Below are positions 2,877 through 3,248 of a stretch of DNA of 13,532 bases, piece by piece. Both the position numbers and the translations under genes were made by a program. This DNA is from a virus (taxonomy: Duplodnaviria; Heunggongvirae; Uroviricota; Caudoviricetes). The notes below the pieces were generated by a model. It ran no database searches. It was not told the DNA's origin and saw only the letters and a list, made by a program, of their open reading frames with translations. The stretch covers positions 1 through 13,532 of the IMG/VR virus record IMGVR_UViG_2778261085_000011, one strand, 5' to 3'. Position 1 is the first letter of the stretch. Every line of letters begins with the position of its first letter.

Positions 2877-3248
2877 TTAAGCTGGGGGATGTGGTGCCAT
2901 GTTTCCCCCTCCAATGGGGGAAAAGCCCACCAGCGTAACGCATGACGTTGATGAAACGCCCCGCTCGTCCTGTGCTCTGGTGAGGCGGTAGCGTTCGTAC
3001 TCTGTTGTGCCGGGTTGTAAATCTGATTCACCAGCGGCACGTAAATCATCAAGCTCCATGCGGAGTTTTTCGTTTTCGATCTCCTTCCCCCTCTGTACAT
3101 ACCATTCAATCACCTGTGCAGAATCGAAAGTCACCTCCACACCTTTTCCGCCACCAGATACATGGGGAAGCCATTGCATCTGCCAGCGTTCAATCGTGCG
3201 CGGATCAACACCGAAAATCTCCGCCAGTCTCTTTTTGTTAACATTAAT
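2877..3248 (-). pseudogene. Terminase small subunit (lambda Nu1-like) N-terminal fragment; start codon lost, C-terminus divergent
   Basis: Frame reads [23 protein letters not shown]...[19 protein letters not shown]...EIENEKLR...[18 protein letters not shown], colinear with lambda Nu1 (MEVNKKQLADIFGASIRTIQNWQ...GGGKGNEVLYDSAAVIKWY...EIENEKLRR...DLQPGTIEYERHRLTRAQ, from memory). The frame opens with ATT directly after a TAG, the nearest ATG is out of frame, and the sequence diverges after RAQ with a stop at about 124 codons, versus 181 aa in Nu1. Confidence 0.6.

Follow-up and report, generated by a model that had tools for sequence, protein, structure and literature searches.

The small-terminase frame on the minus strand of the window (the whole stretch of 13,532 nt that was analyzed, IMG/VR record IMGVR_UViG_2778261085_000011) is, as far as sequence comparisons can tell, very probably what remains of a terS gene that belonged to the island itself and no longer functions; it would be a commonplace pseudogene, and the element carrying it is of a familiar type. 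Its ancestor was a full-length terS of the lambda/21 family that directly followed a cos of the phage 21 type. Codons 94–194 were lost, together with the DNA beyond them, in a deletion of at least 1.4 kb that fused codon 93 to intergenic sequence, and point mutations destroyed the start codon (ATG>ATT) and turned an invariant glycine of the DNA-binding domain into tryptophan. No useful protein would be made from the remaining stub, and packaging would now proceed via the helper's own TerS of 21 specificity or via the other cos-like sites of the island. The stub of about 280 nt probably survives only through the abutting cosB, as the latter adjoins it and must stay intact for the packaging of the island.

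By its gene content, the window is a phage-inducible chromosomal island (PICI) of E. coli. The integrase gene (12291–13532, minus strand) lies at one end of the island and is followed in minus-strand order by AlpA (11570–11776, minus strand), Ash, DUF4222, a RepA-type AAA_25 helicase, SSB, ProQ/FinO, PerC, and a 98-aa gene, beyond which come cos, the terS stub, the 94-aa paralog of the 98-aa gene, another PerC-like gene, and a SocA/Panacea gene. No capsid or tail gene was detected among the examined ORFs and called genes of the window, and the features by which Gram-negative cos-type PICIs are recognized (int, alpA, a replication module, cos, a length of about 10–15 kb, and no structural genes) are all present, in the architecture of the Gram-negative PICIs of Fillol-Salom et al. 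2018 (PMC6092414). Over 13,140 nt, the window is almost identical to the E. coli draft chromosome GCA_900479425.1, the two differing by a single SNP and one repeat unit of 4 nt, and beyond the window's end a host autotransporter gene, a response-regulator gene, and ccmH follow, hence the island is chromosomal. Two pairs of paralogs bracket the cos-terS stub, namely the 94/98-aa genes (2519–2809 and 3763–4059, minus strand; phrog_1561, about 80% DNA identity) and PerC-family genes (1660–2031 and 4565–4852, minus strand).

The frame of the stub (3248–2877, minus strand) comprises 93 codons that are colinear with lambda Nu1 and phage 21 gp1 and end in ...YRLTRAQ, followed by an unrelated 30-codon tail and a TAA stop codon (2879–2877). 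Pfam, PDB, tblastn, and DNA identity together identify the colinear part (2970..3248, minus strand) as codons 1–93 of an island-type Nu1-family small terminase gene. Residues 1–95 were matched to model positions 1–95 of 164 in Pfam PF07471 (Phage_Nu1; E = 6.2e−43), the PDB matches comprised 6hn7_B (lambda TerS 1–98; E = 8e−36) and 1j9i (E = 7.5e−22), and amino acids 1–93 of the intact island TerS aligned at 93.5% to positions 3248–2970 of the window (tblastn). Judged by these alignments, the resemblance to Nu1 is far above chance, and the colinearity through RLTRAQ with subsequent divergence and stop, which the first-pass annotation had read from the letters, is upheld. The stub thus encodes a homologue of the DNA-binding wHTH domain at the N-terminus of Nu1 (residues 1 to about 68), with a recognition helix (DPRTIERWQ) identical to that of phage 21 gp1, and the position directly downstream of cosN-cosB is the one expected for terS; at NCBI, an 87-aa call in this frame carries the label "Terminase small subunit (gp1)". 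The stub does not encode a full-length TerS (self-association and C-terminal TerL-binding region, about 181–194 aa), and since the TerL-binding C-terminal part is missing, it cannot serve as a terminase subunit. A search for a second piece of terS in the window with tblastn found none. Two antisense ORFs (3007–3396 and 3005–3241, plus strand) and an alternative frame (2519–3109, minus strand) were considered as genes, had no family match, and were treated as spurious.

The start region also corresponds to what had been noted from the sequence alone: an in-frame TAG (3251–3249, minus strand) is followed directly by ATT (3246..3248, minus strand), the nearest ATG (3244–3242) is out of frame, and a GAGGA Shine-Dalgarno motif (3257..3261, minus strand) is located 8 nt upstream of the former start. 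This motif is inherited, being present in intact relatives as well. The ATT itself is the result of a private G>T at 3246, with ATG found at this place in 8/8 aligned relatives. Further into the stub, the frame reaches its first ATG at codon 24 (3179), and an in-frame GTG occurs at codon 37 (V37).

Where the first-pass annotation had suspected an indel behind the scrambled C-terminus, the comparison with relatives points to another cause. Homology to terS ends abruptly at 2970/2969, up to which the DNA is 94–96% identical to the intact terS of three related loci (L001, L002, and L005), and the read-through tail (2877..2969, minus strand; 30 codons plus TAA) matches unannotated intergenic DNA situated in relatives upstream of the 94-aa gene, so that the divergence after RLTRAQ is a deletion junction rather than an internal indel. 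For instance, positions 2930–2972 of the window correspond to L005 3741–3783, and positions 2488–2942 to L005 3171–3622, while a 157-nt query matched DNA annotated as "none" in 58 genomes. At base level, the junction shows merely a short patch of imperfect homology. In comparison with MB06102 about 1.5 kb are missing, and in comparison with C5 about 3.7 kb, the latter loss including PAAR/pyocin/immunity cargo and an inverted cos-like copy. As read from these alignments, a deletion of at least 1.4 kb created the fusion of stub and tail, and it also brought the 94–96-aa gene (2519..2809, minus strand; phrog_1561, function unknown) to its place about 70 nt past the stop codon of the stub. Scans of the region 2450–4150 returned two promoter-like matches with 1.8 expected, i.e., chance level, and terminator-like sites at chance level too, none of them between the stub stop and the 94-aa gene on their strand.

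Besides the truncation, the stub has accumulated changes at positions that are otherwise fixed. Four residues of the stub (I1, W26, G54, and M64) are found in none of the 83 full-length cluster representatives of the Nu1 family with which it was compared. Codon 1 encodes Ile (ATT) in the stub and Met in 83/83 intact representatives; codon 26 is TGG (Trp; 3171..3173, minus strand) due to a private G>T at 3173, with Gly in 83/83 intact representatives at this position just after the recognition helix; and E54G replaces a residue that is E or D in all 83, while M64 falls on a site that is variable. When eight island relatives were aligned, seven private substitutions were counted in the 279 nt of the stub versus one in the 227 nt of the upstream cos. 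The private changes in the stub are four nonsynonymous to three synonymous, versus 22:29 among the eight relatives (Fisher p = 0.69), and because these ratios do not differ significantly, the argument for a pseudogene is carried by the qualitative lesions. Taken together, the stub shows the truncation, the start loss, and the changes at invariant sites that are used to recognize pseudogenes, and independent inactivations occur in sister elements (see below). A decayed terS in one such PICI is ordinary.

The neighboring cos is in a different state. A cosQ-like element, CACGGGTCCTTTCC (about 3469–3456, minus strand), and the equivalent of the cosN 12-mer, GGGCGGCAGACG (3426..3437, minus strand), were located by alignment to the cos of lambda and phage 21, and phage-21-type cosB elements (3270..3387, minus strand) were mapped from the annotated phage 21 record OL657228.1, i.e., R3 AAGCATGTCGGTACTT (3387–3372), the IHF site I1 (3363–3351), an inverted R2 (3329–3314), and R1 TTTCATGTCGGAGGTGG (3286–3270), all on the minus strand. 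With cosQ, cosN, and R3-I1-R2-R1 recognizable, the cos beside the stub is complete and apparently intact, and R1 ends (3270) 22 nt short of the former start codon (3248). The stub thus resembles the genes of phage 21 gp1 and lambda gpNu1 in its N-terminal wHTH, in its location directly after cosN-cosB, and in the 21-type R3, I1, R2, and R1 beside it, but differs from them in lacking the self-assembly and TerL-binding parts, the ATG, and Gly26, and in not being followed by terL. The island cosN differs from the lambda/21 sequence GGGCGGCGACCT in 5/12 positions, and the nearest phage cos-terS regions, those of PhiR5_1 and phage 21, are only 72–74% identical. No close match to this cosN was found in sequenced phages (INPHARED), where cosQ-cosN identity was at most 80% and no candidate helper was obtained, and the exact cosN 20-mer matched five IMG/VR contigs, all of them satellite-sized. 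The interval from PerC to the 98-aa gene holds two more cos-like elements in inverted orientation to each other (4067–4153, plus strand, and 4372–4459, minus strand), with potential cut sites at about 4098–4109 and about 4427–4416; each consists of a cosQ-like GCGGGTCC and a cosN-like GGGCGGCGGACG / GGGCGGGAGCAT and has no 21-type R boxes. These are probably the equivalents of the "cos1/cos2" sites of the EcCICFT073 PICI.

In related islands, an intact terS of 193–194 aa is found directly downstream of the same cos (MB06102, C5, PapRG-04-4, A19, and IGC_RcoliRes_1.1), and the intact island TerS covers Nu1 model positions 1–162 of 164. The window shares 92–96% DNA identity with these islands from the cosQ-cosN region through terS codon 93, and the satellite-sized IMG/VR contigs with the same cosN have an intact terS in 5/5 cases. 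Consequently, only a part of the proposal that the frame is a decaying remnant of a captured cos-Nu1 region can be kept: decay is what we find, but the ancestor was a full-length terS already borne by the island, and still intact in many PICIs, and not DNA captured from a helper. TerS-encoding E. coli PICIs (for example, the islands of IHE3034 and 18098; PMC6092414) have the same architecture and likewise carry the cos-terS module on their 3′ side, and unlike the window, where a deleted and mutated stub is left, their TerS of 193–194 aa is intact.

Island-type terS sequence was detected in 33 of 5,426 complete E. coli genomes, 24 of which carry a full-length gene (including A36, where it is annotated as frameshifted), while the other nine keep its last 62 nt only. 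The Rpp-type island of STEC313 has this 62-nt end joined to the opening 17 nt of terS next to cos; from its sequence, the relic arose by an independent internal deletion that took codons 7 to about 174. In a Logan contig (L013), one nucleotide is missing at codon 96; this is a short-read assembly, and the gap could be an assembly error. Across orthologous islands, where a conserved truncation had been envisaged as the alternative to decay, we found different and independent disruptions of terS instead, the pattern that the first-pass annotation had listed as a refutation; to judge by these loci, the gene was lost independently in sister islands. There are hints that the TerS-less Rpp-type PICIs may descend from terS-bearing ones. 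In STEC313 (L004, 4815–5341) and eight other complete genomes, the 17+62-nt relic lies between two cos copies. An intact terS also occurs together with rpp (DUF1441) in some related islands.

The truncated allele was found in at least 35 Logan sequencing runs and two NCBI assemblies. Gene calling in this frame gave two proteins, one of 100 aa (from M24) and one of 87 aa (from the codon-37 GTG), which are the only members of their protein cluster; the cluster is seen in 33 Logan contigs and two NCBI assemblies (35 collection blocks in the index). Across the stub, nine representative loci match the window exactly, and the loci compared are identical from cosN downstream, apart from repeat-unit differences. 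Two of them (L018 and L019) do not differ from the window between about 3454 and 906, except for repeat units at 1519–1546, but upstream of 3455 they are about 4% diverged and have different upstream genes; this points to a probable recombination breakpoint in the conserved cosQ-cosN core, at a distance of about 18 nt from where the nick is predicted. Going by these loci, the truncated allele is more than a singleton and has resided on two upstream backbones. The lack of variation among its carriers indicates a recent spread and gives no sign of purifying selection.

A counterpoint to the relic reading is that 93 codons are still open behind an intact Shine-Dalgarno motif with good spacing. 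The spread of the allele over many runs and two backbones, and a ratio of private changes that is not significantly different from the one among intact relatives, weigh against it as well. Lambda TerS 1–98 alone is a soluble and stable dimeric fragment that binds DNA and Rpp (PMC6739421), hence a fragment of the stub's length could fold. A protein limited to the DNA-binding domain might then be produced at a low level from AUU, M24, or V37 and act as a minimal Rpp-like or dominant-negative TerS, which would occupy the 21-type cosB R sites or heterodimerize with the helper TerS, so that helper packaging would be disturbed or redirected. We regard such a protein as unlikely, even if the recognition helix shared with phage 21 gp1, the absence of an rpp gene from the island itself, and the number of runs with the allele speak for it. 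The closest conceptual parallel is Rpp (RppA/B/C; DUF1441, PF07278) of EcCICFT073-type PICIs, likewise an island-encoded TerS-like wHTH protein without the TerL-binding tail (PMC6739421, PMC9026076), the TerL-binding region of TerS being about its last 40 aa (PMC9026076). Rpp is characterized by pairing with the helper TerS in a heterodimer and by redirecting packaging to the cos of the island (PMC6739421). However, Rpp has its own C-terminal dimerization surface and works with a cosB without phage R sites (PMC6739421, PMC9026076), whereas the cos beside the stub has 21-type R sites. The stub matched the RppC wHTH in the PDB weakly (E = 0.03) and PF07278 (DUF1441) not at all, and no Rpp homologue was found in the window by tblastn with the island Rpp (best E = 4). 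The start codon, moreover, was lost and not gained, and AUU initiation in E. coli amounts to about 1–2% of that from AUG (range 0.02–3%), with infC and pcnB as the only confirmed AUU-start genes (bioRxiv 10.1101/063800). Products initiated at M24 or V37 would be deprived of helix 1 and the recognition helix, the G26W change affects a residue without exception in the 83 relatives, and the tail is an accidental read-through of intergenic DNA. The truncated cosB-binding domain from a non-canonical start suggested by the first-pass annotation, competing with or partnering the helper TerS, is in our view made unlikely by the lost ATG, the invariant Gly replaced by Trp, and the sister islands, which lose terS in several unrelated ways with no convergence on a truncated form; nor does the uniformity of the stub in the compared loci point to purifying selection. 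There is very little likelihood in the more specific claim that an AUU-started TerS fragment (DNA-binding domain and coiled coil, with phage-21 specificity) poisons or redirects the helper terminase. If true, it would represent a second, independently evolved Rpp-like route of packaging interference, attained by truncating the island's own terS.

It is also highly doubtful that the DNA itself has been retained for a purpose, either as spacing or flank for packaging initiation at cosB or as a transcribed leader for the 94-aa gene. The direct contact of the stub with cosB R1 would agree with the former, and the co-oriented 94-aa gene shortly past the stub stop, with no terminator-like site between them on that strand, with the latter. 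In lambda and phage 21, though, cosB ends before the terS start codon (annotated phage 21 record), and of the terS 5′ end no more than 17 nt is left beside cos in the nine related complete genomes with Rpp-type islands, which implies that the 280 nt are not generally needed; the promoter-like matches are at the level expected by chance, and the stub has more private changes than the cos.

The stub alone is of little importance, being the decayed relic of a gene that is well known, in satellites whose class is well known too. E. coli PICIs with and without TerS have already been published, as have Rpp and the presence of multiple cos sites (PMC6092414, PMC6739421, PMC9026076). The stub is rather a marker that island-borne terS is dispensable and repeatedly lost in E. 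coli PICIs while the neighboring cos is kept intact, and it fits a picture of satellites shifting between their own TerS, Rpp, and cos alone for exploiting the helper terminase. Satellites with only the helper's cos and no terS (for example, the cos SaPIs cited in PMC6092414, and EcCICFT073) are probably similar to the window in having a cos without a working TerS and in depending on the helper terminase, but the TerS-less state of the window is visibly secondary, as the gene stub is still present.

Several minor observations were made on the related islands and on other parts of the window. Relative to the ProQ-PerC backbone, the cos-terS module points one way in L005, L008, and L010 and the other way in the window, L002, and L012. 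In relatives, about 108 nt of the cosQ-cosN-R3 core flank it on both sides as inverted copies, which suggests that the module is inverted by recombination between cos copies. The island of E. coli PapRG-04-4 (L001) has major capsid and head-decoration genes in addition to its intact terS and is situated inside a prophage late region, between the prophage head and tail genes, a layout that matches the "helper-embedded satellite" arrangement (bioRxiv 10.1101/2022.07.18.500453). In the window, a perfect (CCAG)13.5 microsatellite (1495–1548) occupies the intergenic region between the PerC-like and SocA/Panacea genes; it was considered as a phase-variable ORF and rejected, since no ORF > 67 aa crosses the repeat at 5 to 15 copies. 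Its copy number varies among otherwise identical loci (one fewer in L003, six fewer in L015, and seven fewer in L018). On the minus strand, Rfam models identified a C4 antisense RNA (9391–9478) and isrK (9500–9576), as in a P1/P4-like immunity region. These lie within an 805-aa "ORF" (9148–11565) that is an artefact, only its last part being real (the Ash gene), and the rest of this interval is gene-poor DNA with direct repeats about 790–800 nt apart.
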